Positions 1 to 25,903 of a DNA stretch of 64,000 nucleotides are shown piece by piece. Source of the stretch: Candidatus Omnitrophota bacterium. GTDB lineage: Bacteria; Omnitrophota; Gorgyraeia; Zapsychrales; Zapsychraceae. The notes under the pieces are model-generated. The model was not told the origin of the DNA. It made no database searches and saw nothing but the letters and a program-made list of their open reading frames with translations. The position numbers and the translations under genes were made by a program. The stretch lies in assembly GCA_023247445.1 (NCBI GenBank), contig JAHFGL010000003.1, positions 14,128 to 78,127 of the forward strand, in the 5' to 3' direction. How positions within the stretch are numbered: position 1 is the stretch's first letter; every line of letters starts with the position of its first letter.

Positions 1-13
1 TGAAACTGGTGAA

Positions 14-766
14 GTGATGCTGGATCTCTCTCGGGGAAAAATGTTTCGAGACAACGAAATTGCCAAATTTAATAGTATTGGATTAGATGAGAAAAGAGTT
101 TCGGGGATTTTAGCAGGAACAGAGGCATTTGATTTGGACTCGGTTCAAGGGGATGTCTTCGGTTCTTTTGGATTTATCACTGATAATCAAGTTTTTCAGA
201 TGGAAGCGCCAAAAGAAGACGGCGATGATATTGTTGTCCGCGGTTTAGTCATGAGTTTGGAGAATGGAAGAATTAAAGTTGAGATGGTTGAGGGGCGAGG
301 GAATAGAAACAAACTATTGCAGGAAGATGATGAAGATGTTTTGGTCTATTCAGTTGTTGGCGATGGTTTTTACGCCGACGAAGCGCTTGTGACAACGAAA
401 CCAAGTGAAACAATGCAAGAATTTGAAGCTGCTTCTGCACCAGATAAGAAGACGAATTTAGGAGAGAAGAAGTACGGTGGTATCAATCTTAATCCGGCGC
501 TACTTGATCTTCAGATCAAACGCGATGGGCAGGGGATTCCACTACCGATGAATCAACAGCCGATTGAAAATATGCATATTGAAGGATTTTTACCGGTCTT
601 TATTAAACTCACGACGATTACCGATTTGCCGCTGATGCTAGGAATTAATATTCCGGCAGACAAGAAAGATGACGAGAAGACTGATATTAGTTTCAATGTA
701 AGTAGCTTGCCGGTTGAGTATCGTGAAGAGTTTTTGGCGAAAGAGTTGGAGTTGGTGGAAGTGTAG
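14..766 (+). CDS. hypothetical protein; may extend upstream of the window (no in-frame stop before nt 14)
   Basis: 750-nt ORF with no motif I recognise; GTG/ATG start at 14/17, reading frame open to the window edge. Confidence 0.35.
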   Translation: MMLDLSRGKMFRDNEIAKFNSIGLDEKRVSGILAGTEAFDLDSVQGDVFGSFGFITDNQVFQMEAPKEDGDDIVVRGLVMSLENGRIKVEMVEGRGNRNKLLQEDDEDVLVYSVVGDGFYADEALVTTKPSETMQEFEAASAPDKKTNLGEKKYGGINLNPALLDLQIKRDGQGIPLPMNQQPIENMHIEGFLPVFIKLTTITDLPLMLGINIPADKKDDEKTDISFNVSSLPVEYREEFLAKELELVEV

Positions 767-860
767 TTAGGGTATTAGGTGATTTGGTGATTAGGGACAG
801 GGGATTAGGTTAGTAGGATATTAGGGACTGAGAGTTAGCGGATTAGGGAATTAGGGACTG
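767..860. repeat. left arm of an inverted repeat flanking the four-helix-bundle gene (degenerate TTAGGGA/ATTAGGG-type units)
   Basis: repeated ttagggtattagg / gattagggaattagggactg units; their reverse complement recurs at 1271-1352 (cagtccctattcacccaataacc). Confidence 0.5.
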
Positions 861-865
861 AAAGG

Positions 866-1270
866 TTGCAAGAAAGGAGGATAGTGATGCCTACGTTTAA
901 AGATTTATGGATTTGGAAAGAATCTCATCAATTAATGCTTGAGATCCACGAGTTAGCTAAGAAGTTACCTGCCGAAGAAAAATTCAGAAAACGAGATCAA
1001 ATAGAAAGATCATCTTCTTCCATCGCTGATAATATTGCCGAAGGTTACGCGGCGTATTATTACAATGATAAGATAAAAACTTTCTACATTGCGCGTAAAG
1101 AAGTAGCAGAGACTCAAAATCACATTGAGGCTTTGGTAGGAAAGAATTATTTGGATAGAAAACAAGCTGATCTTTGGATTAATCAATATAATCGAATAAT
1201 TGCTGGTATTAATGGGTTAGTTGCTTATATTCGCGATAAAAGTCGAAGTGAAGCGCAAAAGAAAAGGTAA
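866..1270 (+). CDS. four-helix-bundle protein of the 23S rRNA intervening-sequence protein family
   Basis: 134 aa; KESHQL..EIHELAKKLP...SSSIADNIAEGY pattern typical of the TIGR02436-type IVS proteins; RBS aaggagg upstream. Confidence 0.75.
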   Translation: MQERRIVMPTFKDLWIWKESHQLMLEIHELAKKLPAEEKFRKRDQIERSSSSIADNIAEGYAAYYYNDKIKTFYIARKEVAETQNHIEALVGKNYLDRKQADLWINQYNRIIAGINGLVAYIRDKSRSEAQKKR

Positions 1271-1352
1271 TTTGGTTATTGGGTCCATCGACGTCCCTAT
1301 TCCCCTAATAATCTAATCACCAGTCCCTATTCACCCAATAACCTAATATCCT
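1271..1352. repeat. right arm of the inverted repeat flanking the four-helix-bundle gene
   Basis: tccctattcccctaataatctaatcaccagtccctattcacccaataacctaat is the reverse complement of the left-arm units. Confidence 0.5.
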
Positions 1353-1445
1353 TTTTCCATTCTTTCTCCTAAAAAAATCCTTCCCTATCCCGTTCCTTAA
1401 TGCTATCTTATTTTTTGAAAACTCCCTGCAATTTTATTTATTCTT

Positions 1446-1586
1446 CGTCATTCTGAGCGATAGCGCACTGACTTTTCCATATTTATATTTAGATGAAGTC
1501 AGTACGTACCAACTTCATCTAAAACTATTAAGGAAAGTTGGTGCGAAGAATCTCCTGAGATCCTTCGGCTTTGCCTCAGGATGACG
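1446..1586 (+). mobile_element. MITE-like palindromic element, copy 1 (TIR + X hairpin + Y palindrome + TIR)
   Basis: cgtcattctgagcg ... cctcaggatgacg terminal inverted repeats; internal hairpin gtactgactt...aagtcagtac; palindrome ctcctgagatccttcg; near-identical copies at 25718, 39752 and 45686. Confidence 0.7.
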
Positions 1587-1613
1587 AAAAATAAGAATTA
1601 ATATATTAAGGCA

Positions 1614-3788
1614 TTGATGTTGTTTGCGCAAAACTCCAAAGATTCTTCATCCCCGTTTTCCCTTCCTGTTTTATTCTTCATCACGTTTCTCTTATGGATC
1701 TTTGCTTTTAAGGATTTTGTTTTTGACAAGATCACGCTAAGCTCGGATGCCTTGGCCTATTATGAACATTTTAAGGTTTTTACTGATGGTCTAAGGCGCG
1801 GGGTTTTCCCAATGTGGGATCCAACCTGGATCACAGGCATTCCAGAAGAATTCTTTTTGCGTCGGATGGGATCATTTAATCCCTTTATTTGGATTATTAT
1901 TATATTTAATAAAATTGGAATTCCTTACAACATTGCCTATCTTCTTTTCTTAAGTTGTTATTATTTTTTTGGCATGGTCGGATTCTATTTATTAGCCAAA
2001 CGCATAATAAAAGATTCTGCCATCGCTTTCTTGGCATATCTACTTCTGATGTTTTCTTCGCTGGGGACAAGAATGTTTGATTCCTATATTCTCCTTACCT
2101 TTGTCCCGATGGTCTGGTTTTTTTTCTTCTGCGTTGCCTTTTGTCAAAATCCGCAGCGGTTTTATTTCTTGGGCCTTATTTTTAGTCTGATGATTTTGTT
2201 TACAACCTACATCCCATTTTATTTTATAACTATCTTTTTAACATTCTTGATTTCTTTGGTGATCTTGTATTTTGCGCAATTAAAAGAGATCGCCGCAAAA
2301 GCGTTGTTTTTTATAAAGGGGAACAAAGGTTTTGTTATTTTGTGCTGTTTGTTCTTTTTCATATCTCTTTGGCCGGGCTGTTTATTTTATAAAGAAGCGC
2401 AGAAGGGGGAGATGGTATTTTTTGAGCGGCATTCGACCTCGAGCGTTTCAAACCAGGTCAGCGTTGGCATTGAAACTGTCACAAGCTGGGGAATCGAGGA
2501 AGATATTGCTTACGCGAGCGCCTTCACCGATTTGAAACGATTTAAGTTTGCCATTCTTTATATATCCTTTTTTGCCTATTTGATTTTTCTTTTGGGCATT
2601 ATTACTGATGTTAACAGAAAAATTCTGTTTCTTTTTGTCTGGGCGGGCCTGCTTATTCTAATAACGACGCCGCGTCTTAGTGGGATTTATGATTATCTTT
2701 ATCAACATGTTTTCTATTTTAAATATTTCCGGAATCTTCATTTCTTCCTGTGGCTAGTTTTACTTCCCATATTTATTCTTTTTTTATCTGGGCAATTAAA
2801 AAATTTATTATCTTTTCAACCTAAGACCAAAACCGGTCGAATTGGTTTTTTAACATTTATTACGTTAGTCCATGCTGGTTTTCTCTACTTTATCTATTCT
2901 CAGGGAAGCAATATCGCCAGCTCTTATGCAGTTGTCATTTTAAGTTGGTTGTTTCTAACGTTATATTTCTTGGGGCGGATTAAAACGTGTTATTTGCCCA
3001 TTATATTTTTGGTCATTGTGATTATCCAGCCGCTGGAGGTTTATCATTATTTATCGCGCAACTCTATCCCCAAGGTTAAAAGTTTTAAACATGTGTATGA
3101 ATCTGATTATTTGTTTCCCAGGATGATACAAACTGAAAATAAATTGATAGAAATGAAGCAAAGTTTTGCCCAGGAGATAAAGGGATTATCTCACTATGCT
3201 GAAAATAAAACGTCCAATTCTTACATTGGACTTAAGTGGATGAATCTTTTTAAGAATAATTTGAATTTAAAGATATTTGATGAATACTCGGCCTATAAGA
3301 TTGTTCTTTATGATCATGTCGAATGGATGAAAGATGACCAAGTTGATTTTGAGCGTCTGGGTAAGGCTATTGCCAACAGCGAAAACGTTGCGTTTATTTC
3401 TGAGTCGCCTCAGAAAGAGGGAGTGGGTGCTTTAGGATCATCAGCGCAAATTATTACAGCTGAATCTAAGGAGGTAAAGATTTTGAAATATGATTTTAAT
3501 GACGTGATATTAAAAACTAATCTCAATAAAGAGAAATTTTTAGTTTATAACGATAGCTATCATAGTGGTTGGCATGTGTTTATCGATGGGAAAGAGGCGC
3601 CCTTATTTCGAACGAATGTTGCCTTTAAAGGTGTTTGGGTGCCCGCGGGAGAACATCAGGTATGGTTTCGCTTTGGCACAGCGCTTGATTATTTTCGAAA
3701 TTATTTTCTTCTTATGATGTTTTATGCCGTTTTTATTTATTTATTATTTCTGGGAAAGAATTTGTATTCTCAAAAAGTGATTAATTAA
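1614..3788 (+). CDS. polytopic membrane protein, YfhO-like GT-C glycosyltransferase family (assignment tentative); paralog of 4713-6950
   Basis: 724 aa, many TM segments; C-terminal LVYNDSYHSGWHVFIDGKEAPLFRTNVAFKGVWVPAGEHQVWFRF resembles the YfhO C-terminal signature; about 60% identical by eye to the downstream copy. Confidence 0.45.
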   Translation: MMLFAQNSKDSSSPFSLPVLFFITFLLWIFAFKDFVFDKITLSSDALAYYEHFKVFTDGLRRGVFPMWDPTWITGIPEEFFLRRMGSFNPFIWIIIIFNKIGIPYNIAYLLFLSCYYFFGMVGFYLLAKRIIKDSAIAFLAYLLLMFSSLGTRMFDSYILLTFVPMVWFFFFCVAFCQNPQRFYFLGLIFSLMILFTTYIPFYFITIFLTFLISLVILYFAQLKEIAAKALFFIKGNKGFVILCCLFFFISLWPGCLFYKEAQKGEMVFFERHSTSSVSNQVSVGIETVTSWGIEEDIAYASAFTDLKRFKFAILYISFFAYLIFLLGIITDVNRKILFLFVWAGLLILITTPRLSGIYDYLYQHVFYFKYFRNLHFFLWLVLLPIFILFLSGQLKNLLSFQPKTKTGRIGFLTFITLVHAGFLYFIYSQGSNIASSYAVVILSWLFLTLYFLGRIKTCYLPIIFLVIVIIQPLEVYHYLSRNSIPKVKSFKHVYESDYLFPRMIQTENKLIEMKQSFAQEIKGLSHYAENKTSNSYIGLKWMNLFKNNLNLKIFDEYSAYKIVLYDHVEWMKDDQVDFERLGKAIANSENVAFISESPQKEGVGALGSSAQIITAESKEVKILKYDFNDVILKTNLNKEKFLVYNDSYHSGWHVFIDGKEAPLFRTNVAFKGVWVPAGEHQVWFRFGTALDYFRNYFLLMMFYAVFIYLLFLGKNLYSQKVIN

Positions 3789-4708
3789 TGATCAAATTTT
3801 TCTCGTTTATAACTCGAAAAGTATTTTTTCTCTACATTGTAATCTTTTTTATCGCTTATCGTTTTTTGGATTATCAAAGCGTATTTGAGATTAGTCGGTT
3901 GAAAACCTTGAACCGGCTTGTGCCGCCGTCTTTTAGTGGTCTTGTCCAATATAGTCAGGGCACAGAACAGTTAAAGAAAGAGGACTTAGAAAGTTATTTG
4001 TATTATTTTAATAAAGTCATAGAATATGTTCCCTATGAGTCAGACCTGGCGGATGCGTATGGCATGTTGGGATTTTGTTACTATGCCAAGGGAGAGCCGC
4101 ACAAGGCGATTGATTTTTACAAAAAAGCCATCGGTCTTAATCCGCATTTCTTTTGGTTTCACTATAACCTTGGTCTTATTTATTACAAACAAGGCCGTTA
4201 TAAGGAAGCGATGGATAGTTTGGATCATGCTATTTCTTCAAATCCGGGAGTTATTGTTGAAGTACTGAAAACATCCAGGATTTACCGCCAGGTTATGGAG
4301 TTATCAAAGTATTCTACGCAAAACATGGACATTGGATTAAAGACAGTTTATCGCAATGCTTATTTGCTTTTGATTACGATGCATGATGCTCGTAAAGATT
4401 ATCCAAAGATGTTTGATTATGCCGGTGTTGCTATTGAGGTGAAGCTAGATGATGACGGTTTATTTTATTTTTATCAGGGATTGGCAGCCTATCGTTTGAA
4501 ATCATATAATAATGCGATTTTTGCTCTACAGGAAAGTCTTCGCCGAAACCAAAACAATGCCGACACTTTTTATTATTTTGGTTTATCATTAGATGCTGTT
4601 GGGAAAAAAGATTATGCGCAGGCCTTTTTGAAGCAAGCCGAGGTGAGAAGAAGAGTTACCCAGGGGTATTCGTTTGACCCACAGAAGGTTAATTTAAAAA
4701 TATTTTGA
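3788..4708 (+). CDS. TPR-repeat protein with N-terminal TM anchor; paralog of 6940-7863
   Basis: AYGMLGFCYYAKGEPHKAIDFYKKAIGLNPHFFWFHYNLGLIYYKQGRYKEA is a classic TPR pair; start overlaps the upstream stop (ATGA). Confidence 0.6.
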   Translation: MIKFFSFITRKVFFLYIVIFFIAYRFLDYQSVFEISRLKTLNRLVPPSFSGLVQYSQGTEQLKKEDLESYLYYFNKVIEYVPYESDLADAYGMLGFCYYAKGEPHKAIDFYKKAIGLNPHFFWFHYNLGLIYYKQGRYKEAMDSLDHAISSNPGVIVEVLKTSRIYRQVMELSKYSTQNMDIGLKTVYRNAYLLLITMHDARKDYPKMFDYAGVAIEVKLDDDGLFYFYQGLAAYRLKSYNNAIFALQESLRRNQNNADTFYYFGLSLDAVGKKDYAQAFLKQAEVRRRVTQGYSFDPQKVNLKIF

Positions 4709-4712
4709 TTGT

Positions 4713-6950
4713 ATGACTAAATATCTAAGAAAAGTTAAACAGTTTTTTCGTTTGGACAACATTGCTTTCTTGCTGTGTCTGGCGTTTTTGATTTGGTTTT
4801 ATGCTTTCCGAGGATTTTTGTTAGATAAATTGACACTCACCTCGGATGCCATGGCCTATTATGATCATTTTAAATTTTTTGCCGATGCTTTAAAGCGTGG
4901 GGTGTATCCTTTATGGGATCCAACCTTTGAGCATGGGATCCCGGTCGAGTTTTTCTTGCGTCGGATAGGTTCTTTTAATCCACTCATTCTTTTCCCATTT
5001 CTTCTTAATAAGCTTGGGATACCTCATGTTTTATCGTATTTATTTTTCTTAGGATTTTATTATTTCTTAGGGATGATTGGGTTTTATTTAATTGCCAAGA
5101 AAATCTTTAAGAATCCCGCGGTCGCCTTTGTTGCTTGTTTACTTCTTATGTTTTCTTCACTGGGGACTCGCCTATTTGATTCGTATATCTTGTTAACGTT
5201 TATTCCCATGGTATGGTTTTTTTATTTTTGCGTGTCATTTTTTGATAGGCCGCAACGATTTTATTTTATCGGCATGATTTTTACGCTAATGATTTTGTTT
5301 GTAACGTATATTCCGTTTTATTTTATTACCATTTTGGGGGCTTTTCTTATTTTGTTTGGTATCTTTTATTTTTCTCATCTTGCCAGCGTTATTAATCGTG
5401 TGAAAGAATTCTTTAAAGGTAACCGCATCTTTGGTGCCTTGTGTCTTTTAGCTTTTTTAATATCGTTATGGCCAGGATATGCGTTTTATAAAGAAACGAA
5501 AGCAGGCGGGCCCGATGCAACCTTGGGAGATAACACAGCGGAGTTTATTTTGCCGGAACGACATGCGACATCCACCTCAGATAGTCAGATCGGGGTCGGG
5601 ATCTCAACAAGTACGTCCTGGGGTATAGAAGAAGATTTGGCCTATAGTCAACACTTTCGAGATTATAAAGAAATTGGATTTGCGGTTGTGTATATCCCCA
5701 TATATGCCTTTATTTTGTTTTGGATTGGGGCTTTTGCAACAACCCAGAGAAATTTTTTCCTTCTCTTTGGGTGGGGGTGTCTTTTGTTATTTATGACGAC
5801 CCCGCGGATTACGGGTCTTTATGAATTCTTGTATGACCATGTTTTTTATTTTAAATATTTTAGAAACTTACATTTCTTCCTTTGGCTGATTTTGCTACCG
5901 CTTTTTATTCTTGTCTTGGCCCAACAATTAAAGAGTTTCTTAAATTTTAAACCACAACGACAAGCCCAGCGGCATGGATTGTTGGCTTTTCTTGCCGTGA
6001 TCCATATCGGTTTTGCAATCTTGGCCTATCTTCAAGGGCAAAATATTGTGTCAACGTATGCCGTTATCGGATTAAGCTTCGGGGTTTTGGTGGCGCATGT
6101 CTACGGATGGCTTAATCCCCGTTATTTACCTGCGTTATTTTTGCTTCTGGTGGTTACTCAACCCCTCGAGGTTTATCATTATTTGAGTAAGAACGCGGTT
6201 ATTAAAGAATATAAATATCGATACGATGAGCCAAATTATTATTTGTCTTTAGGAGCTCAATACAACGATAAAGATCTGTTTAAAGTTCAAGCTGAGAATA
6301 AGGATTTAGTAGGGAATATTGATCAGGTTGTTGATAAGAAGTCAACGCGATCTTATATCAATGTTAAATGGAAAAGTTTCCTTGAGGAAAATTTAAATTC
6401 CACCGTTTATGGGAATTATATGCTTTGTAAAGCACTTCTCTATGATCATGTTGAGTGGATTGATGATGATCATATGGATTTAGAACGTATCGGTAAGGCT
6501 TTTCAGAAATTAGAGAATACAGTCTTTGTGTCTGTTGGCAAGGGAGAGCACCCTCAGGAAGAAGGGGCTATAAAATCTGGATCCAAACCAGAGATTCTTA
6601 CGAAGGATTCAAAGAATCTCCAGATTTTAGAATCTGATTTTAATCATTTTAAAATTAAAGTTCGTTCAGATCGGCCCAAATTTCTTGTTTATAACGACAG
6701 TTATCATAGCGAATGGCAGGTTTTTGTTAATGGCCAGAAAATGCCGTTATATCGAGCGAATATAGCCTTTAAAGGTGTTTGGGTCCCCGCTGGTGAGAGT
6801 GTTGTTTATTTTCGTTATGGCTCGCCGACACGTTATTTTAGAAATTATTTGCTACTAGCGGTATTTTATAGCATGTTTATTTATTTGCTGCTGTTATGGT
6901 ATCAATTTTATAGAAAAAAATCCGGAGTAATCCATCCTCATGAAGTTTAA
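4713..6950 (+). CDS. polytopic membrane protein, YfhO-like (tentative); tandem paralog of 1614-3788
   Basis: 745 aa; conserved blocks LTSDAMAYYDHFKFFADALKRGVYPLWDP, PRITGLYEFLYDHVFYFKYFRNLHFFLW and C-terminal LVYNDSYHSEWQVFVNGQKMPLYRANIAFKGVWVPAGE. Confidence 0.45.
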   Translation: MTKYLRKVKQFFRLDNIAFLLCLAFLIWFYAFRGFLLDKLTLTSDAMAYYDHFKFFADALKRGVYPLWDPTFEHGIPVEFFLRRIGSFNPLILFPFLLNKLGIPHVLSYLFFLGFYYFLGMIGFYLIAKKIFKNPAVAFVACLLLMFSSLGTRLFDSYILLTFIPMVWFFYFCVSFFDRPQRFYFIGMIFTLMILFVTYIPFYFITILGAFLILFGIFYFSHLASVINRVKEFFKGNRIFGALCLLAFLISLWPGYAFYKETKAGGPDATLGDNTAEFILPERHATSTSDSQIGVGISTSTSWGIEEDLAYSQHFRDYKEIGFAVVYIPIYAFILFWIGAFATTQRNFFLLFGWGCLLLFMTTPRITGLYEFLYDHVFYFKYFRNLHFFLWLILLPLFILVLAQQLKSFLNFKPQRQAQRHGLLAFLAVIHIGFAILAYLQGQNIVSTYAVIGLSFGVLVAHVYGWLNPRYLPALFLLLVVTQPLEVYHYLSKNAVIKEYKYRYDEPNYYLSLGAQYNDKDLFKVQAENKDLVGNIDQVVDKKSTRSYINVKWKSFLEENLNSTVYGNYMLCKALLYDHVEWIDDDHMDLERIGKAFQKLENTVFVSVGKGEHPQEEGAIKSGSKPEILTKDSKNLQILESDFNHFKIKVRSDRPKFLVYNDSYHSEWQVFVNGQKMPLYRANIAFKGVWVPAGESVVYFRYGSPTRYFRNYLLLAVFYSMFIYLLLLWYQFYRKKSGVIHPHEV

Positions 6951-7863
6951 ACCACAAATCAAATGGTTATTATTTCTTAATAGGGCGATTATTTTTTATC
7001 TTCTTTTATTTGTTGTCCTGGCGGTTTCTCTAAATCAAACCAGAACAAAATTAAAAGTTAATCTCTTGGCCCTTAATCGTTTAATGCCGTCTTTTGATTA
7101 TTTGGTTAGCTTTGAGGCAGGCGCGGCGCCTTTTAAGGCCAGTGAATTTGATAAATATGTCGACTACTATGAAAATTTTGTTAAATTCGTCCAGGATAGG
7201 CCAGAGGCGTATACGATGCTTGGGTTTTGTTATTATCATATGGGAAAAACAAAGAAGGCGATTTCATTTTATGAAAAGGCGATTAAGTTAGATCCTGATT
7301 ATTTTTGGCCTTATTACAATTTAGGATTAATTTATTTTAAAGAAGGGGATTTTGCGGGGGCAGTTAATTATCTTGGTAAGGCGGTTGATATCAGCCCAGA
7401 TTATTCTTTCAAACTTGTCCGCAATTCAAAACTTTATCGTCCCATTCAAGCGGTCAGTAGTGTTAATTCAGATTTTAAAGCTTTAAAAAAGATGAAGGTT
7501 TACTACACCTATTCTTATAATCTTTTGATTCTAAGTTATATTCAGATGGGAAATTTTCAGAAGGCTTTTGAGGCGGCCAATTTTGGGATTAATTCTAATT
7601 TTGGTCATCAAGATTTTCTTCATTATTATGCAGGGTTAGCCAATTTAAAAATGGGAAACCCTAAATTAGCCATTGTTTATTTTAGAGAATGTATAAACAA
7701 GAATAAGAATTATGTTGATGCTTACAAAGGGTTAGCCCAGGCGCTTATCGCGATGGGAGAAAAAGAGCGGGCGAAAGAGGTGACCAATGCGACCCCATTT
7801 CTATCCAAAGAAAATCCACAAGATATGTTTGACCCAAAGTTAATAAGGTTACAACTTTTTTAA
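6940..7863 (+). CDS. TPR-repeat protein with TM anchor; paralog of 3788-4708
   Basis: AYTMLGFCYYHMGKTKKAISFYEKAIKLDPDYFWPYYNLGLIYFKEGDFAGA. Confidence 0.6.
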   Translation: MKFKPQIKWLLFLNRAIIFYLLLFVVLAVSLNQTRTKLKVNLLALNRLMPSFDYLVSFEAGAAPFKASEFDKYVDYYENFVKFVQDRPEAYTMLGFCYYHMGKTKKAISFYEKAIKLDPDYFWPYYNLGLIYFKEGDFAGAVNYLGKAVDISPDYSFKLVRNSKLYRPIQAVSSVNSDFKALKKMKVYYTYSYNLLILSYIQMGNFQKAFEAANFGINSNFGHQDFLHYYAGLANLKMGNPKLAIVYFRECINKNKNYVDAYKGLAQALIAMGEKERAKEVTNATPFLSKENPQDMFDPKLIRLQLF

Positions 7864-7872
7864 AATCGCTGC

Positions 7873-9039
7873 ATGAATCTAAAAGAAAAAGTTTTCTCCA
7901 AATTCCCCGTATGGTGTTTTATCGTTTTTGCTGCGATGTGCCTTCTTCATTATTTTTCCCTGCGGCCGTTATGGCTTGATGAACAATTCATTTTAAATAA
8001 CATTCAAGATTATAATTATGTCCAAGTTTTTGGTCCTTTAAAGAATCTGCAGGCTTTTCCCCGGGTTTATTTGGTTGTAGTCAAAGCTTTTTCACAGGCA
8101 TTTGATTATCATTTGCTTTCACTGCGGTTTTTTTCTTTGGTTTTTATGCTGGGCGCTTTTGTAATCTGGATAAAGCTGTATCAACGCCAGTGGCAAGACA
8201 AGGTGGGGATATTTTTATCGATATTATCTTTTACCGTTAGTTATCAATTGGTCTATTATTCTGCTGAACTCAAACCTTATTCGATGGATGTTTTAGCGGT
8301 TGGATTATTTTGTTTGTTTTTTTACTATCAACAACAATTTGTTAGTAAGAGTCCAACAGCTTGGCTGTATTGTACGAGCATTCTTTTACCTTTCTTGATT
8401 TTCTTTTCCTATGCGGGTTGTTTCGTGTTTTGGATGGTCGGTTATAATTTTATAATTCTTATCCGAGATAACAAAAAGTTGATTCCCGTTTTTCTGGTCA
8501 ATGCCGCTGTGTCTTTATTGTGCCTGGCCCTTCTTTATTTTATCGATTTAAGGCATGGCATGTATATGAACGGGTTTTATCAGTATTGGAAAAATTATTT
8601 TTTAGGCATAAATTCTTTTACGGCCTTTATAACTCCGTTTGGCGAGGCCTTAAAAGAAATTGGAACATGGTGGTATGGCAATACTAAGTTATTAATCCGC
8701 ATGGCAACCCCGTTTTTGCCTTTATTGGTATTTTCTTTGGCGAAATATGGCTTTGGCGGATGGAAGAAAAATGGCTGGGGAATTTTTACGATCCCGCGGA
8801 TGTTTGGTGTTCTTTTTGTGGAATTGATCATTTTAAGCATTTGCCACAAATATCCTTTTACCGGTGATCGCATCACATTATTTCTGGCGCCATTTGTTTT
8901 TTATATGATTGTTAAAGGGATTGATAGCTTACGGAAGATTAAGATTCTTCATGCCATTTGCTTTGGGTATTATTTATTTTTTCTGGGCGTTTGTTTGGTT
9001 AGCAGCTTTCTCCATTATCTGAGTCTTTACAAACAGTAG
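7873..9039 (+). CDS. polytopic membrane protein, GT-C fold (PMT/ArnT GT39/GT83-like) glycosyltransferase candidate
   Basis: 388 aa; first-loop LRPLWLDEQF acidic motif after TM1, then many TM segments. Confidence 0.4.
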   Translation: MNLKEKVFSKFPVWCFIVFAAMCLLHYFSLRPLWLDEQFILNNIQDYNYVQVFGPLKNLQAFPRVYLVVVKAFSQAFDYHLLSLRFFSLVFMLGAFVIWIKLYQRQWQDKVGIFLSILSFTVSYQLVYYSAELKPYSMDVLAVGLFCLFFYYQQQFVSKSPTAWLYCTSILLPFLIFFSYAGCFVFWMVGYNFIILIRDNKKLIPVFLVNAAVSLLCLALLYFIDLRHGMYMNGFYQYWKNYFLGINSFTAFITPFGEALKEIGTWWYGNTKLLIRMATPFLPLLVFSLAKYGFGGWKKNGWGIFTIPRMFGVLFVELIILSICHKYPFTGDRITLFLAPFVFYMIVKGIDSLRKIKILHAICFGYYLFFLGVCLVSSFLHYLSLYKQ

Positions 9040-9046
9040 TCTAACC

Positions 9047-10528
9047 ATGTCTGCACGATTATTTTTTCGATTTATTTTAATCATTATCCTTCCTGGAGTA
9101 TTAGCTTTTATTCTAACAACGCTGATTTGTTCCTCACAAAACACATTGGCCCATAATGGTCGATGGATTTCTACTAAAACAACTTTGCAAAAACCAGTTT
9201 CAGGTGCATTTACTTTTTTGACGACGCGTCAGGCTTTAGCCAAGAACCGATTGAATCTTGGCGCCTGGCATGGATATCAAGAAGTCATTTACAAAGATCC
9301 ACTTTCTATTAAGGATATTTCTTTTGATGTCTATTATCCAATGCCGAGTTATTTGACATTTATTTTTAATAAGGATTCTTCGGGGTTTGACGGCATTCGT
9401 TTAAGTGCGCATCCTATTTTTAAGAATATTTATTTAAAGTCGGATGAAACTGGCCAATTTTTGAAGAAGATGAATCTTCCGATGGATTCCTTGGCGCTTC
9501 ATCGTTGGCATCATGTAGCAATGGTTTGTGAAGAAGGTGGTTTGTCTTTATATGTCGATCGTTTATTGTGGGGGAAGATTTATTCCACGTGTTTGTCTGA
9601 TCGATATCTTGGATTTCGGAGTGGTAAGAAAGATATTTTGGTTGATAACGTCGTAATCCACCTAAAAGATTCTGCGACTACGATTCATGAAGACTTCTCT
9701 AATCGAGGAAGATTTATCACCATTTTGGGTGTTATATGGATCGTTGGTTGTCTTATTTCGTTTATATATAAAGGAAGAGAACTTCTTGGTTTACAAAGCC
9801 TTCTGATTCTTTTGTGCAGCTTAATTTATTTTTTTGATAATCAATTTCAAGCGCTTAGATATCCGATAGCTTCATCCTTTAAGAAACAAGAAGAGGTTTA
9901 TTGGAAAATGGCCCAAAGAGATAGGGTCTGTGATCTTTTAAGGAAACAGTATAATTTTTCAGCCCAAAATGATATTGATCGCATTTTGTTTATTGGCAGT
10001 TCACAAACTTGGGGGGCGGGAGTGCTTAAGGAAGAAGATAATTTTGTTTCGCATCTTGAGAAACACTTCAATAAAAGGAAATTTGGGAATCGAGCTGTAT
10101 CTTGTATTAATGCCGGCATCTCTGGGCTAGATGCACCAGCCCTTTTTGATTTATACGAAAAAGAATGGATCAATCTTGCGCCCGAGTGGGTTGTTATCAA
10201 TCTATCTTTTAATGATCGTCTTGATCCAAAGAAATTTGCTTTAAGTTTAAAGAAATTTATTCATTTGAATTTGGTTAAAGGAATTAAGACCATATTTGTT
10301 TTAGAAGCCACTTCACTGGAAGATGAAGAGTTGACATTTCCAGCTTATGCCGCGATGAAAGAGGTGGCCCTCAACAATAATATTCCCATTATTGATATGC
10401 ATCAATTCTTAAAAGGTCACTATGATGACGGTTTTTTGTGGTGGGACACGGTGCATTTAACCACCTTTGGACACAAATTATTGGCGGACACCTTGGCTAA
10501 AGAGTTAAGTAAAATTATTAATAAATAA
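9047..10528 (+). CDS. membrane-anchored protein with a LamG/ConA-like domain and a C-terminal SGNH/GDSL hydrolase domain
   Basis: N-terminal TM; WHHVAMVCEEGGLSLYVDRLLWG (LamG-like); ILFIGSSQTWGAGV (GDSL block I) and WWDTVHLTTFGHKLLA (DxxH block V). Confidence 0.55.
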   Translation: MSARLFFRFILIIILPGVLAFILTTLICSSQNTLAHNGRWISTKTTLQKPVSGAFTFLTTRQALAKNRLNLGAWHGYQEVIYKDPLSIKDISFDVYYPMPSYLTFIFNKDSSGFDGIRLSAHPIFKNIYLKSDETGQFLKKMNLPMDSLALHRWHHVAMVCEEGGLSLYVDRLLWGKIYSTCLSDRYLGFRSGKKDILVDNVVIHLKDSATTIHEDFSNRGRFITILGVIWIVGCLISFIYKGRELLGLQSLLILLCSLIYFFDNQFQALRYPIASSFKKQEEVYWKMAQRDRVCDLLRKQYNFSAQNDIDRILFIGSSQTWGAGVLKEEDNFVSHLEKHFNKRKFGNRAVSCINAGISGLDAPALFDLYEKEWINLAPEWVVINLSFNDRLDPKKFALSLKKFIHLNLVKGIKTIFVLEATSLEDEELTFPAYAAMKEVALNNNIPIIDMHQFLKGHYDDGFLWWDTVHLTTFGHKLLADTLAKELSKIINK

Positions 10529-10634
10529 CAAAATAGTGGCCAAAATAATCTTGCTATAAATATTCGATACATATATAATAGCGCTCCAAGTGTAGAGAAA
10601 CTATACAGTTATGTGAGGAGCAGCGTTTTAAATA

Positions 10635-10786
10635 AAATTCCAATAAACAAGTACCAAATACCAAGCAATGCACAAATCCCAATGACCAAAATTTAGTTTT
10701 GTACCTTGTTAATTGGATTTTTTTTGGTATTTGTGATTTTGGATTTGTATATTGTCTGTGATTTGGTGTTTGGGATTTGGAATTTT
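10635..10786 (+). promoter_or_regulatory. long imperfect hairpin (A/C-rich arm then G/T-rich arm) immediately upstream of the trxA RBS; copy A of a three-member family
   Basis: aaattccaataaacaagtaccaaataccaa...ttggtatttgtgattttggatttg...tgggatttggaatttt; arms are complementary (ccaaataccaa/ttggtatttgg, caaatcccaa/ttgggatttg); followed by aaaagaggagg and ATG. Confidence 0.4.
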
Positions 10787-10802
10787 AAAAGAGGAGGATT
10801 GA

Positions 10803-11123
10803 ATGTCTGTTGCACAAATTACAGGGAAGAATTTTGAGAACGAAGTTGCTAAATCCAACTTGCCGGTTTTAGTTGATTTTTGGGCCGAGTGGTGTGGCCC
10901 TTGCCGGATGATTACCCCCATTGTTGATGAAATTGCTAAAGACTTAACTGGAAAGTTAAAGGTCGGGAAGGTTAACGTTGATGATGAACAAGAATTAGCC
11001 GCCCGATTTAATATTATGTCCATTCCGACGCTTCTCATTTTTAAAAAAGGCGAGGCCGTTGATCAAATTGTTGGTGCGATGTCGAAAGATCAGCTTTTAG
11101 CTAGGATAAATCCGAATTTATAA
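10803..11123 (+). CDS. trxA: thioredoxin
   Basis: 106 aa; WAEWCGPCR active site; strong RBS gaggagg. Confidence 0.9.
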   Translation: MSVAQITGKNFENEVAKSNLPVLVDFWAEWCGPCRMITPIVDEIAKDLTGKLKVGKVNVDDEQELAARFNIMSIPTLLIFKKGEAVDQIVGAMSKDQLLARINPNL

Positions 11124-11130
11124 GGGGCAA

Positions 11131-11188
11131 GTAGCAAGGGGCATGGGTCAAGGACATATTCCTTGCTACATGACCCTTGACCCTTTTA
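11131..11188 (+). terminator. rho-independent terminator after trxA
   Basis: GGGTCAAGG...CCTTGACCC 9-bp stem (with a nested alternative TAGCAAGG/CCTTGCTA) followed by TTTT. Confidence 0.5.
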
Positions 11189-11197
11189 GGAGAATTT

Positions 11198-11548
11198 ATG
11201 TTCATTCATTTCTGCAAATCCAAACTAGCTCACGCAACCATTAACGAAGCCGAACTTCATTATGAGGGAAGCATCACCATTGATGCCAATTTGCTTAAAG
11301 CCGTCGATATTATTCCTGGTGAAAAAGTCGAGGTTCTTAACATTAATAATGGAAATCGGTTCGAAACATATGCCATTGCTGGAGAGCCTGGTTCTGGTCA
11401 TATTTGCCTTAACGGTCCTGCCGCTCGCTTAGGGCTTGTGGGAGATAAGATCATCATATTAAGTTATGTTCTTTTGGATCCCAACGAAGCCAAAACGTTT
11501 AAGACAAAAGTTGTTCACTTAGATGCTCACAACAAAATTAAAAATTAG
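11198..11548 (+). CDS. panD: aspartate 1-decarboxylase
   Basis: KLHRATV-like [21 protein letters not shown], then ...[26 protein letters not shown]; ATG at 11198 follows aggag (the ORF track starts earlier at 11177). Confidence 0.8.
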
Positions 11549-12029
11549 ACTTTACGGCGACCCATGCCTTCGTAAAAAGTCTACTCTTTTAAAAGAAGTA
11601 GGTCCTTCCGAGCGTATTTTAATTGATTCCATGATTGCCACGATGCATGACTATAAGGGGATTGGTCTGGCGGCGCCGCAGGTGGGTGTTAACCAGCGCA
11701 TTATTGTTGCTGATATCGGAGAAGGCCCCATGGCCTTAATTAATCCTAAAATTATAAGAAAGTCAGGAACAGATATTTTGGAAGAAGGCTGTTTAAGTAT
11801 TCCCGGCATTACGGTCAAGATTAAGCGTGCGCAAAAAGTTTTGGTTCAATACACCGATCATAATAATAAATCTGTCGAGAAGGTTTTTGAAGATTTACTG
11901 GCGCGGGTGATTTTGCACGAAACGGATCATTTAGATGGGAAGTTGATCATTGATTATGCGACGATTGTAGCTAAACGGAAATTTAAAAACCAACTCAAAG
12001 AAATTGAAGCTAGCCAAAAGAAGTCATAA
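11523..12029 (+). CDS. def: peptide deformylase
   Basis: [18 protein letters not shown] and HETDHLDG motifs; overlaps the panD 3' end by 26 nt. Confidence 0.85.
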
Positions 12030-12949
12030 TGCCCCAATTATTAGAAGATAATCCAACCGCCGATAATAATCGTTTACCGCTGTGGTTTAATCAGCCAATT
12101 CCGAATATGGATAAAATTCGGGAAATGAAGGGGCTGTTTCGCTCTTCGGGACTGCATACGGTTTGCGAAAGCGCGCATTGCCCTAATATTGGTAAATGCT
12201 GGGGAGAAGGAGTTGCCACATTTATGATTTTAGGCGAGATCTGCACGCGTGCGTGTCGCTTTTGTGCGGTTAAAGCGGGCAAGGCGATGGATGTTGATTT
12301 AGAAGAACCCAAGAATGTGGCGCTCGCGGTCCAAAAATTAAAATTACGTTATGTGGTCATTACATCTGTTGCTCGTGATGATTTAGATGATGAAGGGGCG
12401 GATCATTTTGCGCAAACTATATCTGAAATTAGGCGGATAATGCCGCAAACAAAGATTGAGGTTTTGATTCCAGACTTTTCCAACAAAATGGATAGTCTTA
12501 AGAAACTTGTTGCCGCCAAACCCGAAGTTGTCAGCCATAATATCGAAACGGTTCGTCGGCTGTCGCCAAAAATTAGACCACAGGCCCAGTATGATCGATC
12601 GCTGGAGGTTCTGCGTAATTTTAAGAAATTGGATGTAAGTATTTTTACCAAATCAAGTTTTATGGTTGGACTAGGAGAAACAGACGAAGAAATCGACGTC
12701 GTCATGCAAGATTTATTAAAAGCAGAGTGTGATATTTTAACGATCGGTCAATATTTAGCGCCAACTAAATTAAAACGGCATCTGAAAGTTTCACGATTTG
12801 CGACACCCAAAGAATTTGACAATTATAAACAGCGGGGCCTGGCGATGGGATTTAAACATGTGATGAGTGGCCCTCTCGTGCGAAGTTCTTTTATCGCTGA
12901 AGAAGGATATAAAGAATGTTTTGGAAAGGGCGTTGCTAAAAATGTCTGA
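12029..12949 (+). CDS. lipA: lipoyl synthase
   Basis: CPNIGKCWG auxiliary-cluster motif and CTRACRFCAV radical-SAM CxxxCxxC motif. Confidence 0.9.
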   Translation: MPQLLEDNPTADNNRLPLWFNQPIPNMDKIREMKGLFRSSGLHTVCESAHCPNIGKCWGEGVATFMILGEICTRACRFCAVKAGKAMDVDLEEPKNVALAVQKLKLRYVVITSVARDDLDDEGADHFAQTISEIRRIMPQTKIEVLIPDFSNKMDSLKKLVAAKPEVVSHNIETVRRLSPKIRPQAQYDRSLEVLRNFKKLDVSIFTKSSFMVGLGETDEEIDVVMQDLLKAECDILTIGQYLAPTKLKRHLKVSRFATPKEFDNYKQRGLAMGFKHVMSGPLVRSSFIAEEGYKECFGKGVAKNV

Positions 12950-13940
12950 ACCTAAGAAAAAAAATAATCTTCTTTCATGGCTAATGCGGGTTGGGTTTAG
13001 CGCAGCTTTATTAGGTTATATATTTTCTAAAATTGATATAACACAAACATGGACCGTGTTTAAGTCCGCCGATTTTAGCTATATTTTTTATGCCTGGTGG
13101 GTGTTTTGTTTTATTAATGCCATTATTCTTTGGCGATGGTTTACTCTTATTCGAGCTGTTGATTTAACGACACCTTTTTTTACCGTCGCACGGTATTTTC
13201 TTGTTGGTTTGTTTGGAAATTTATTTCTTCCGAGTGCGGTTGGTGGAGATATTATCAAAATTGTTGGTTTGTGTAAGGATAGTCATCAAAAACCTAAGGT
13301 TGTTGCCTCGGTCCTACTTGATCGCCTTAGTGGTTTTTCAGGAATCGTGGTCGTTGCCATTGGCGCATTTCTGTTTGGATACCGTATTATCAATAACCCC
13401 TCACTTTTAATTTTTGTTATGATTTTGGCGGCGGTATCATTGACCGTCACATTTATATTGTTTAATGAAAGAATTTATTCTTTTTCTTGTCAGATTTTTA
13501 ATGCCTTTCCCCGTGTTAAAAACAGTCTGATGAGCCTACATTACGATGTGTCGTTATTAAAAACGAAGAAAATTGAAGGATTTAAAGCTATTGGTTTTTC
13601 CTGTATGGCTCAAATTTTATTAGCGTTTGTTTTTTATTTGGTGGCCAAAGCTCTGCACCAAGATATTCCAATAATCTATTTTCTAATTTTTGTTCCCATG
13701 ATTTGCGTCGTTTCATCAGTTCCCTCCATTGGTGGATTAGGTGTTCGAGAAGCAGGGGCGGTTTATTTGTTTACCAAAATTGGAGTGCCTTCCAACATCG
13801 CTCTTAGCATTTCGTTAATTAATTTTTCTTTTATGGTGCTTATTGGTCTTTTAGGCGGAATTGTCTATGTCATTACACTATCTTCTAGACGGGTACAACA
13901 TTATCCATCAGATACCAAAGCTAAGCCTCGAGAAGCTTGA
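12942..13940 (+). CDS. flippase-like membrane protein (UPF0104 / lysylphosphatidylglycerol-synthase TM-region family)
   Basis: GLFGNLFLPSAVGGDIIKI signature; about 8 TM segments; ATG at 12942 overlaps the lipA stop (the track start at 12867 is probably too early). Confidence 0.55.
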   Translation: MSEPKKKNNLLSWLMRVGFSAALLGYIFSKIDITQTWTVFKSADFSYIFYAWWVFCFINAIILWRWFTLIRAVDLTTPFFTVARYFLVGLFGNLFLPSAVGGDIIKIVGLCKDSHQKPKVVASVLLDRLSGFSGIVVVAIGAFLFGYRIINNPSLLIFVMILAAVSLTVTFILFNERIYSFSCQIFNAFPRVKNSLMSLHYDVSLLKTKKIEGFKAIGFSCMAQILLAFVFYLVAKALHQDIPIIYFLIFVPMICVVSSVPSIGGLGVREAGAVYLFTKIGVPSNIALSISLINFSFMVLIGLLGGIVYVITLSSRRVQHYPSDTKAKPREA

Positions 13941-18484: not shown

Positions 18485-19990
18485 TTATCCGCTGGTTTTA
18501 TCCATCCACAAAGCATAAATTACCCAGAAAACGACTGTCGGTAAGGCCGCGTATAAAATGCGGTGTAAGGTGACTTGTAGCCACCAATCGATGGGGAAGT
18601 ACGTATTGATGAAGTAGTAAAAAGTAATGACCGCCGTATAAGCGATAAAAAATAGAGGGAAAATAATTATACGGGGATTTAATAAATGCTTATTGGTGCC
18701 GATTAGAATGGCGATCAAAAGAAGCAAAATAACATTGTACCCGTGCGGTAAGCTCATCCATAAACCATTGAGCCCAGGTAAAATAATTGGCCCAAAACTA
18801 AAAAGAATGATACATAGCTTTAATATTATCCAGCGTTGATCGCTTAAGAGTAACCCCGCCACTAAAACCAACCATAAGCCATTCCAATTTGGACTGACAA
18901 TTTCTGCTAAATAAAACGATAAAATATATTCTAATCTAAATAAGCTGACAGGTTTTATTGTTGAAACAAGACCATTAATCATGGTGATGTTTTTTGGTGC
19001 ATAAAATCCATAGAAAATAATGGATGGAATAGAAGCGATGGCGCCGGCAATAAAAAATGTCTTTAAGATTTTCCATTTATCCTTTGCTGAATCTTTCCAG
19101 AAAATATAAGGCACGGCTAAGCATAGAATGATGAGAGCGGCAATCAAGGCTTCACCTTTTGTAAAGCTTAAGAAAGCTAAGAAAGTTCCGGCGAGTAAAG
19201 CGTAAATGGGATGGTGGGTTTCTTTTAATTCGATTAGGCAAAAGAAGCTGGCCAAAAGATAAAAGCTCACAACGATGTCGCAGTATTGACTCAAAGATAA
19301 TTTAATATAAAAAGGCATGCTTAAAATGACGAGCGCGGTAAGAAAAGAAAATATACTTTTTGTTTTGTGCCTGAGGGCGAAAGAAAGTAGTCCGATGGTT
19401 AAAAAGGTAAATAAGAAAGAAGTGAAAATGGATGCTTCGACATCAGGTTGGTTGATGAATGTCCAACCCCAGAGAATGGTGCAGGGCAGAAATAAGGGAT
19501 AGTGTGGGCTTGATCGCCATAAAATAGAAGTAAACATTCGCTTCCAATCATCACCGCTTAAAAATAGAAATTTTGCTTTGAGATTCCATACCGACCACGC
19601 ATCCCATCCTCCGTAGGCATAAAAATGGGCATGGATCCATAATGGTAAAGAGATGATAATTAAAAATAGAAATGGGTAGAGAGCTTTTTGGCTAAAAGTG
19701 TTTGGTGGGAAAATTGGTGATTTATCTTTGTTCCACTTTAGAATTTGGATAATGGTTAGCAAACAAAGAACGATTAAATTTCCACTAATGATAAACAGGC
19801 GATTAAATTGATTAAATAAAATAAAACTAGAGAAAACAATGCTTGAACTTATACCAATGCCTAATCCAGCGGCCAAGAAAAGATGAATTGAAGGTGGTAT
19901 CTTGTGTTCTTTAGACGAAAAAAGGTTGATCGCTAAATATCCAATCGTAAAGGAGATAAAAAATGGTAAGTAGACTAATAAGAGATTCAT
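18485..19990 (-). CDS. polytopic membrane protein; paralog of the N-terminal half of the 998-aa protein
   Basis: 501 aa; shared blocks LAAGLGIGISSSIVF/LALGLGLGFSSFITF and YGGWDAWSVWNLKAKFLF/YGEWDAWAMWNLKTKFLL. Confidence 0.5.
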   Translation of the reverse strand: MNLLLVYLPFFISFTIGYLAINLFSSKEHKIPPSIHLFLAAGLGIGISSSIVFSSFILFNQFNRLFIISGNLIVLCLLTIIQILKWNKDKSPIFPPNTFSQKALYPFLFLIIISLPLWIHAHFYAYGGWDAWSVWNLKAKFLFLSGDDWKRMFTSILWRSSPHYPLFLPCTILWGWTFINQPDVEASIFTSFLFTFLTIGLLSFALRHKTKSIFSFLTALVILSMPFYIKLSLSQYCDIVVSFYLLASFFCLIELKETHHPIYALLAGTFLAFLSFTKGEALIAALIILCLAVPYIFWKDSAKDKWKILKTFFIAGAIASIPSIIFYGFYAPKNITMINGLVSTIKPVSLFRLEYILSFYLAEIVSPNWNGLWLVLVAGLLLSDQRWIILKLCIILFSFGPIILPGLNGLWMSLPHGYNVILLLLIAILIGTNKHLLNPRIIIFPLFFIAYTAVITFYYFINTYFPIDWWLQVTLHRILYAALPTVVFWVIYALWMDKTSG

Positions 19991-20418
19991 GGCTTTCTTC
20001 GGATTAATATCATTCCAAATTTATTTACAAACAAAGGTTCAGCATTTAATTCTTTAATTTTTTCAAGGGCCTGAAGATCGTTTTTACAGACTAAAAGAAT
20101 GAATTCATGATTTGTATTGTTGTAGTCAAGCACCGTGGGCGCCAAAATAAATTGAGCCTGAGAAAATAGTTTGTTTGATTCATCATCATTGGTGTCGCTA
20201 TAATAGCCCAAGAGGTTAATCTTTTTGGTAATGTTTTCTAATCCTAGGAATTTGCCCCCGATGACTTGATGCTTTAGATATTTTTTAAATGTTTTAATGC
20301 GGTTGACCTCGGGGATAAAGACAATAACATTAAAAATAATAATGGCCAGGAAGGAGACGATAAGAATTCTCTGGGGCAAAGATTTTGGCCAATTTATTTT
20401 AAATGAGGGCAACGTCAT
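19987..20418 (-). CDS. small single-TM protein; paralog of 23408-23869
   Basis: 143 aa; shares SQAQFILAPTVLDY / LQAQYFLAPTILEL with the 153-aa protein; 4-nt overlap with the downstream gene. Confidence 0.45.
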   Translation of the reverse strand: MTLPSFKINWPKSLPQRILIVSFLAIIIFNVIVFIPEVNRIKTFKKYLKHQVIGGKFLGLENITKKINLLGYYSDTNDDESNKLFSQAQFILAPTVLDYNNTNHEFILLVCKNDLQALEKIKELNAEPLFVNKFGMILIRRKP

Positions 20419-23411: not shown

Positions 23412-23869
23412 CGTTTTCTTTGCGTCAAGGCCTGTCCGTAGTCATTGTGGGCCACTGGACGGGCATTAATTTTTCTTAACACCATTGGAAGAATTGTATA
23501 ATCAGGAAAGTCGACAATGTTAAATACTGGATTGGGTCGATTGAGTTCTAAGATCGTTGGCGCCAAGAAATACTGTGCTTGTAAGAAAATCCCATCGTTT
23601 TTTTCTCGCGACATATCTTTGCTGGTTAAATAGCCAACACGTTCTATCCCAGCGAGTTTAGGTTTGAAGGTGAGAAATTGATACCCTGGCTCGTAATAAG
23701 TGCTATAACCACTGGCAACATGGGCCATGACACTAATATAAAGAGAAATAATATTATGGATAAGAAGTCCGCAGGTTAATGCCAAAATGAGGGTGTTTAC
23801 GTGAAACCATTTTTTGGGGAACATAGGCGAAGCTATTTTATTACTGGACCTTTGAGAAAACAAGCTCAA
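23408..23869 (-). CDS. small single-TM protein; paralog of 19987-20418
   Basis: 153 aa; overlaps the start of the 998-aa gene by 4 nt. Confidence 0.45.
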   Translation of the reverse strand: MSLFSQRSSNKIASPMFPKKWFHVNTLILALTCGLLIHNIISLYISVMAHVASGYSTYYEPGYQFLTFKPKLAGIERVGYLTSKDMSREKNDGIFLQAQYFLAPTILELNRPNPVFNIVDFPDYTILPMVLRKINARPVAHNDYGQALTQRKR

Positions 23870-25710: not shown

Positions 25711-25717
25711 ATTTATT

Positions 25718-25890: not shown

Positions 25891-25903
25891 AATAAAATAT
25901 AAA

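Follow-up and report, generated by a model that had tools for sequence, protein, structure and literature searches.

The window analyzed here, a 64,000-nucleotide (nt) stretch of a contig from Candidatus Omnitrophota, carries near its start a run of six tightly packed + strand open reading frames (ORFs), which we refer to as A1, T1, A2, T2, M, and L (Table 1). A1 and A2 are YfhO-type membrane proteins, T1 and T2 are their tetratricopeptide repeat (TPR) partners, and M and L are the genes downstream of these two pairs. An earlier note, made from the DNA letters alone, had listed these six genes in this order, with overlapping stop and start codons in the two pairs, and all six ORFs were found at exactly the coordinates it gave: the stop codon of A1 and the start codon of T1 share 1 nt (TAATG), A2 and T2 overlap by 11 nt, and the remaining gaps measure 4 nt (T1-A2), 9 nt (T2-M), and 7 nt (M-L), followed by a 274-nt spacer between L and the downstream trxA. 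The public gene call for A1 is 723 amino acids (aa) long and begins with the ATG at position 1617, which is likely the true start. Gene spacing suggests that the six genes may form one transcription unit, with M and L probably co-transcribed with the cassette in this genome and with the likely promoter region in the spacer upstream of A1. Promoter and terminator scans returned counts that were not above those of shuffled controls, so the operon boundaries are placed by gene spacing only; an Rfam search of positions 1 to 12000 returned no match.

Table 1. Features of the six-gene stretch and its upstream spacer (positions are those of the window).
Feature	Coordinates	Strand	Description
Upstream spacer of A1	1271-1613		343 nt; holds, at about 1461-1555, a copy of an interspersed ~90-nt repeat
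A1	1614-3788	+	724 aa from TTG; predicted divergent YfhO-superfamily GT-C membrane glycosyltransferase
T1	3788-4708	+	306 aa; TPR partner of A1, one hydrophobic anchor at the N terminus
A2	4713-6950	+	745 aa; paralogue of A1, family-invariant residues all kept
T2	6940-7863	+	307 aa; TPR partner of A2, faster-diverging copy
M	7873-9039	+	388 aa; compact GT-C-fold membrane protein of an Omnitrophota family
L	9047-10528	+	493 aa; membrane anchored, putative ConA/LamG-like domain and C-terminal SGNH/GDSL domain

The Pfam YfhO model (PF09586) matched A1 at 31.8 bits against a cut-off of 28.5, over residues 615 to 689 only, and A2 at 23.7 bits, under that cut-off; in both proteins the match spans only profile positions 750 to 826 of 835, the last ~75 residues. 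Across the family, 43 of 61 members match the model at E ≤ 0.1, marginally and at the C terminus (best E, 1.6e-8), no PMT_2 match was found in A with Pfam, and an NCBIfam search of A returned no match. Sequence and profile searches of A and M, and of their alignments, against PDB sequences gave chance matches only (glutamate receptor, viral E protein, Fab). The link to YfhO came through a bridging Omnitrophota protein encoded next to an A gene (L031:7091-9502, − strand), which matches the membrane domain of the Pfam YfhO model (57.1 bits, profile positions 37 to 440) and aligns with the A-family profile over 590 columns (hhalign probability 99.1%, E = 4.9e-19). The YfhO assignment made in the earlier note therefore stands for the whole length of A by way of this bridge, while the direct Pfam evidence is confined to the C-terminal end and, for A2, is sub-threshold.

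An AlphaFold2 model of A1, built from a 61-sequence alignment, had a pLDDT of 93.2 and a pTM of 0.92, and when it was compared with the PDB using Foldseek, the top 31 matches were all GT-C enzymes, namely, PglB, STT3, EmbA/B/C, ArnT, AftD, AglB, and DPY19 (E = 5e-4 to 0.16; probability mostly ~1.0, and 0.72 for the weakest of the 31). The GT-C fold, for which structure prediction had been proposed as a check, was thus recovered. The model comprises a polytopic N-terminal domain, a β-sandwich at about residues 560 to 689, and a final transmembrane (TM) helix at 690 to 723; in Foldseek comparisons, the β-sandwich resembles AftD, CBM6, and glycoside-hydrolase accessory domains. Twenty positions are invariant in the family, including D45, R84, R272, and R373, and all are kept in A1 and A2; D45, which is invariant in 61 sequences, directly follows the helix at 17 to 36, i.e., it lies after TM1. 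Because the fold matches GT-C and full-length homology runs through the bridging protein, we assign A to the YfhO superfamily, of which it is a distant but genuine branch with a GT-C fold. An exhaustive search with the A profile yielded 513 cluster representatives (50% identity) at E ≤ 1e-30, 8,007 at 1e-10, and 42,060 at 1e-3; judged by these searches, the A family is a compact clade inside a large superfamily. The close homologues all come from metagenome-assembled genomes of Candidatus Omnitrophota, some of them under generic ENA labels.

T1 and T2 had been described in the earlier note as TM-anchored TPR proteins, and both halves of that description hold. The proteins are about 300 aa in size with roughly 5 to 6 repeats, and they match TPR_1 (T1, 70.3 bits; T2, 91.3 bits) and TPR_2 (69.9 and 93.0 bits) well above the Pfam cut-offs of about 27 to 28 bits; a single N-terminal segment is strongly hydrophobic (Kyte-Doolittle mean over 82 T sequences, 2.1). 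We examined A-family neighborhoods in 79 loci from GTDB species representatives, with three further contexts from other assemblies (loci are labeled L001, L010, L086, and so on). A T gene lies immediately downstream of A, on the same strand and usually with an overlap of a few nucleotides, for 80 of the 87 full-length A genes in related loci, and many genomes carry several A-T loci. Among the seven A genes with no separate T downstream, two lie at locus ends and two are natural A-T fusions from independent assemblies (L043, 1075 aa; L044, 1137 aa), whose C-terminal TPRs were confirmed with Pfam. The two fusions align unbroken from the C terminus of A through a ~40-aa linker and the T anchor to the TPRs, at 34% identity. 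We considered whether they might be sequencing or frameshift errors and rejected this, as they are two orthologues with 34 to 41% identity from independent assemblies and are continuous through the junction; since independent orthologues share it through the junction, the fused form is an inherited architecture.

A followed by T is a conserved two-gene module across Omnitrophota and is typical of the phylum, and functional coupling of A and T is strongly supported by these comparisons. The pairing is nearly obligatory across the phylum and occasionally fused. T evolves faster than A, with a mean identity in related loci of 25% for T versus 35% for A, and the partner changes much faster after duplication. 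The literature that we searched describes neither a YfhO-type enzyme paired with a TPR protein nor this Omnitrophota module. We regard A-T as a GT-C plus TPR module, encoded by separate genes in most cases and by a fused gene in a few, that typifies the phylum, not as a categorically new system.

That the two A-T pairs are tandem paralogues, as the earlier note had it, was borne out: identity is 52% between A1 and A2 over 719 residues (E = 0) and 30% between T1 and T2 from end to end (E = 1e-47), both far beyond chance. At the nucleotide level, identity is 61% for the A copies and 49% for the T copies, identity at third codon positions (44% and 40%, respectively) is near saturation, the longest identical run between the copies is 20 nt, and a search for gene conversion between the copies found no tract. 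Paralogues identical in their variable loops had been named beforehand as the mark of an assembly duplication; since synonymous sites are saturated and no identical run exceeds 20 nt, the duplication is instead old and biological. The source is a metagenome-assembled genome, and a collapsed or chimeric contig joining two strains or loci might be imagined, but apart from the low identity of the copies, the A1-T1-A2 junction is also present on independent ENA and Logan contigs, and the A-T-A-T tandem is shared by at least six more of the related loci (L001, L002, L003, L007, L018, and L066); we give an assembly or binning artifact practically no credence.

Comparison of syntenic loci, which the earlier note had suggested as a way of dating the duplication, points to this lineage as its probable place of origin. 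L086 has the giant protein, M, trx, panD, def, lipA, flippase-like protein, NYN, and MlaE genes, with neither an A-T pair nor L; L010 has a single A-T pair followed by M and the backbone that it has in common with the window; and the window has two A-T pairs on this shared backbone, with L inserted after M. Because its syntenic relatives carry zero (L086) or one (L010) pair, the tandem probably arose when an A-T pair already at this site was duplicated in this lineage, after which T2 diverged at an accelerated rate; the single pair would have been duplicated within that same series of genes, from the giant protein to Mla. Both A1 and A2 are less similar to the A protein of L010 (44% and 40% identity, respectively) than to each other, and for T the identities are 32% for T1 and the T protein of L010, 30% for T1 and T2, and 26% for T2 and the T protein of L010. 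The simplest reading of these values is that the duplication is not recent, yet took place after the split from the sampled relatives. In L001, L002, and the window, the tandem lies 5 to 7 kb upstream of an MlaE-MlaF-MlaD operon, with differing intervening genes.

On balance, we think it probable that the two diverged A-T copies each encode a glycosyltransferase, A, with a dedicated subunit, T, that acts on a cell-envelope acceptor. The scheme that we infer, from donor type and topology to catalytic residue, adaptor role of T, and co-transcription, is as follows. In analogy to YfhO, PgfM, PglB, and ArnT, the donor of A would be a sugar linked to polyprenyl phosphate, and A would transfer this sugar to an envelope acceptor on the periplasmic face of the inner membrane, with catalysis through the invariant acidic residue D45 in its first extracytoplasmic loop. 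T would be co-translated with A and anchored beside it by its one TM helix, with its TPR solenoid on the periplasmic side, like the β-sandwich of A, where it may recruit or position the acceptor or else stabilize the enzyme. If the β-sandwich of A is extracytoplasmic, as in other GT-C enzymes, the order of parts in the fusions would place the end of the last TM helix of A in the cytoplasm, from where the T anchor would return the TPRs to the periplasm. Because the pairs have diverged, T much faster than A, we suggest that they may differ in acceptor or sugar specificity, and the faster evolution of T mildly favors a specificity role over a scaffold role. Protein acceptors have precedents in PgfM, PgtC2, and TMTC, and a glycan or lipoglycan would agree just as well with the CBM-like domain of A and with the set of GT-C candidates in the window.

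Candidate genes for supplying the donor to the GT-C enzymes lie elsewhere in the window. The protein encoded at 12867-13940 (+), of the LPG_synthase_TM family, passes the flippase-like model TIGR00374 and belongs to the conserved backbone. The genes at 24140-26635 (+) encode an oxidoreductase resembling UDP-GlcNAc 3-dehydrogenase, a NeuD/PglB-type sugar acetyltransferase, and a GT2 protein (25904-26635; 243 aa) whose best NCBIfam matches, all sub-threshold, are the Dol-P/Und-P hexose transferases, PpgS, AglJ, ArnC, and PgfS. No GtrA-like gene was seen among the ORFs of 1-30000 or, on inspection by eye, among those of at least 150 aa in 31800-64000, although small GtrA-type proteins could have escaped notice.

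Several observations weigh against this assignment of function. The direct Pfam YfhO match of A is marginal, covers the last ~75 residues only, and falls below the cut-off in A2. The Foldseek TM-scores of the A1 model are low (about 0.33), and it is the E values and the uniform list of matches that we find convincing. The residue aligned to D45 in the bridging YfhO protein is not acidic, so the catalytic assignment of D45 remains putative. Charge bias across the T anchor (2.55 versus 2.52 K+R) is uninformative on orientation under the positive-inside rule. Pairwise A and T distances correlate (r = 0.76), and shared phylogeny alone could explain the correlation. Finally, no GT-A gene adjoins the cassette, no GtrA-type flippase was found, and the candidate GT2 gene is 15 kb away.

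For T, a different part can also be considered, namely, that of an assembly, stability, or scaffold subunit that links A, still a GT-C enzyme, to outer-membrane or periplasmic export machinery; TPR domains are known in both roles. BcsC, PgaA, AlgK, and PelB are TPR scaffolds of polysaccharide export machines, and T has weak, sub-threshold NCBIfam matches to the TPR regions of PgaA, BcsC, and LapB. The N-terminal TPRs are the best conserved (57% T1-T2 identity around residues 86 to 125), as for a constant interface, and T-family genes that do not adjoin A usually follow an unrelated polytopic protein of ~400 aa with 8 to 10 TM segments and no Pfam match (10 cases); since T also follows this second type of polytopic protein, it may be a general-purpose partner. 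T is, however, small, anchored in the inner membrane, and without an outer-membrane barrel, and its much faster divergence after duplication fits a specificity element better, so that a scaffold role looks unlikely to us and we retain the dedicated glycosyltransferase subunit as the preferred reading. Examples of the second module are found at L003:13159-15319, L016:4188-6323, L018:8205-10449, L020:1133-3329, and L024:4203-6451, among others; the ~400-aa protein of L003 is distantly M-like at its N terminus (hhalign 91.9%, motif PLWNDE).

At its left edge, the window contains the C-terminal end of a giant protein (14-766, +), which exceeds 3828 aa on an ENA contig and has no Pfam or NCBIfam match; in L086, the corresponding place before M is taken by a protein of 2484 aa. 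Such a gene, ending directly upstream of the cassette on the same strand and with a counterpart in L086, raises the thought that the A-T pairs are protein O-glycosyltransferases that decorate secreted or giant surface proteins, with T recognizing the acceptor, as analogues of TMTC/PMT or of PgfM. There is precedent in the YfhO family itself, as PgtC2, PgfM1, and PgfM2 O-glycosylate proteins in Ser/Thr-rich regions and PgfM1 and PgfM2 are likewise two paralogues in one cluster (10.1101/2024.05.05.592596), and in eukaryotic TMTC proteins, which fuse a GT-C domain to TPRs (PMC7801869). Against this, the giant protein is present in L086 where A-T is absent, the neighbors of A-T differ among loci, and the CBM-like β-sandwich of A fits a glycan acceptor equally well. 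We therefore consider a protein acceptor possible but somewhat unlikely, and the broader proposal of an envelope acceptor of either kind is the one that we carry forward.

Between the giant gene and the cassette, a 23S_rRNA_IVP/four-helix-bundle protein is encoded at 866-1270 (+; 99.9 bits), with a weak match to Avd of diversity-generating retroelements; this gene is absent from the syntenic L086.

The acceptors of GT-C enzymes are hard to assign, and the A-T pairing offers a testable model in which acceptor choice is delegated to a partner. A separate acceptor-binding partner has been proposed for small GT-C enzymes, for which delegation of this kind has so far only been speculated (PMC8035078). 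The assignment also turns about 500 clusters (50% identity) of "hypothetical" Omnitrophota proteins into probable envelope glycosyltransferase complexes. Omnitrophota are uncultured, ultra-small, and possibly host-dependent bacteria, and because of this the chemistry of their surface is likely important for how they attach.

Set beside the known YfhO proteins (YfhO of B. subtilis and S. aureus, Lmo1079 of Listeria, and streptococcal PgtC2, PgfM1, and PgfM2), A is likewise a polytopic GT-C protein, in a family whose members have about 700 to 850 aa, and it has the same C-terminal extracytoplasmic β-sandwich followed by a last TM helix. YfhO proteins work with a polyprenyl-phosphate sugar synthase of the GT-A type (CsbB/GtrB/PgfS) and with a GtrA-type flippase, whose genes are frequently close by. 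Unlike them, A is matched by Pfam in its last ~75 residues only, stands next to neither a GT-A gene of the CsbB/GtrB type nor a gene for a GtrA flippase that we could find, and comes with a dedicated TPR partner gene, for which we saw no equivalent among YfhO proteins in the papers found. YfhO enzymes glycosylate teichoic acids (PMC5836110, PMC8035078), whereas the A clade is confined to Omnitrophota, which are diderm and without teichoic acids. Durairaj et al. (2023) describe, as component 27, a dark YfhO-like family of bacterial polytopic proteins with a median length of 665 aa, which InterPro annotates as YfhO but which are distinct from reference YfhO (PMC10584680); going by the published description, its Foldseek and HHpred matches to STT3 and PglB are those of A, but the paper reports neither a TPR partner nor an operon context. 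TMTC1-4 and other TPR-fused GT-C enzymes combine a GT-C domain with lumenal or periplasmic TPRs in one protein, and the L043 and L044 fusions have the same order of parts. In the A-T pairs of the window, by contrast, the TPR part is a separate gene with its own TM anchor, and the membrane domain of A is of the YfhO type, without a PMT_2 match, and not of the PMT/DUF1736 type, so that the likeness to TMTC is one of architecture and not of family membership.

M has no match in Pfam or NCBIfam, and its family is well populated and essentially restricted to Omnitrophota. Its AlphaFold model had a pLDDT of 96.5, and the top 26 Foldseek matches in the PDB were all GT-C proteins, the best being ArnT (5ezm; TM-score, 0.54); a D36-E37 pair in the first loop, directly after the helix at 3 to 27, is invariant in 64 sequences. 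The description of M as GT-C-like in the earlier note is thereby upheld. We also considered M as a truncated A and rejected this, as M shows no detectable homology to the A profile in either single-sequence or profile-profile comparison. M resembles ArnT/PMT_2 enzymes in its best structural match, ArnT, and in the acidic D-E pair of the first loop but differs from them in its length of only 388 aa, in having no periplasmic soluble domain, and in its lack of a Pfam or NCBIfam match. We take it from the model that M is probably an independent, ArnT-like minimal GT-C protein and a backbone gene outside the duplicated cassette; it sits in a backbone that exists without A-T in L086.

L matches Lipase_GDSL_2 at 36.9 bits against a cut-off of 32.9, with an SGNH domain at residues 315 to 478; its family profile matches GDSL esterases in the PDB at E = 1e-17, and S319, N389, D467, and H470 are invariant in 46 sequences, leaving the SGNH catalytic blocks intact. 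The SGNH half of the earlier LamG-SGNH description therefore holds. Its LamG-like half has matches that are sub-threshold only, though mutually consistent: Laminin_G_3 (E = 0.023 in L and 1.5e-5, still below the cut-off, in the homologue P0242), 3keto-disac_hyd and Laminin_G_2 in other L homologues, and, for the N-terminal part of the L profile against the PDB, an S-layer domain (0.0085), neurexin LNS (0.1 to 0.2), and galectins (0.3 to 0.6), none of the PDB matches significant. The putative ConA/LamG-like domain would occupy about residues 35 to 215 and is followed by two hydrophobic segments at about 222 to 265. The family extends beyond Omnitrophota, and L is best described as a putative periplasm-facing SGNH esterase or acyltransferase and a lineage-specific neighbor. 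Like periplasmic SGNH proteins that act as esterases or in glycan O-acetyl transfer (AlgX/AlgJ, PatB/Ape, and the SGNH domain of OatA), L has an SGNH domain in which Ser, Asn, and Asp-x-x-His are intact. A second likeness would be a sugar-binding β-sandwich combined with it, weakly supported in L; going by the count of hydrophobic segments, both domains of L would lie outside the membrane. It differs from all of these in domain order, in anchoring by three hydrophobic segments, and in having no adjoining MBOAT or AT3 partner in the window.

We considered L and M as conserved parts of the A-T locus and rejected this, as, among the 79 related loci, L adjoins A-T in none and M in L010 alone; the grouping of all six genes into one locus in the earlier note accordingly does not extend beyond this genome and, for M, its relative. 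In a further locus (L017:596-5585), an A gene has no T partner, and next to it come genes for an MBOAT acyltransferase (73 bits) and for a protein that faintly matches DltD, an arrangement that hints at a link of A-type enzymes to extracytoplasmic acylation, as the SGNH protein L may show in the window.

Farther along the window, at 18485-23869 (−), there are two modules, each consisting of a gene for a small single-pass protein, S (143 to 153 aa), and then one for a polytopic protein, G1 (501 aa) or G2 (998 aa). G1 and G2 are putative GT-C proteins on the basis of motifs and, for G2, a sub-threshold PMT_2 match; the N-terminal half of G2 is 31% identical to G1, and its C-terminal half looks like a second GT-C-like domain, joined by a linker (EAKNL...PEILRYAQDD). 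S-G modules directly flank A-T in four loci (L033, L037, L040, and L084). At 32175-34046 (+), a 623-aa polytopic protein has C-terminal TPRs above the Pfam cut-offs and a TMTC-like architecture, with a membrane domain that lacks a family match. Counting A1, A2, M, G1, the two halves of G2, and this protein, the window may hold about seven GT-C units; the fold was tested by modeling for A1 and M, A2 is a paralogue of A1, and the other members are putative. It could be supposed that an Omnitrophota envelope glycoconjugate is built or decorated on the periplasmic face by such a battery, each enzyme with its single-pass partner (T or S), and that the quickly diverging TPR subunits serve as interchangeable specificity modules targeting, e.g., the giant surface proteins that are typical of the phylum. 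This must be called improbable as it stands; if true, the battery would be a split, modular bacterial counterpart of eukaryotic TMTC/PMT protein O-glycosylation.

The repeat in the spacer upstream of A1 is ~90 nt long, contains an internal palindrome, and is present in four copies with 87 to 93% identity, at about 1461-1555, 25779-25867, 39771-39856, and 45726-45819. Of these, three lie between genes, including one immediately upstream of the GT2 gene, and the copy at 45726-45819 lies inside a 1526-aa ORF (44998-49578), where it would be translated in frame.

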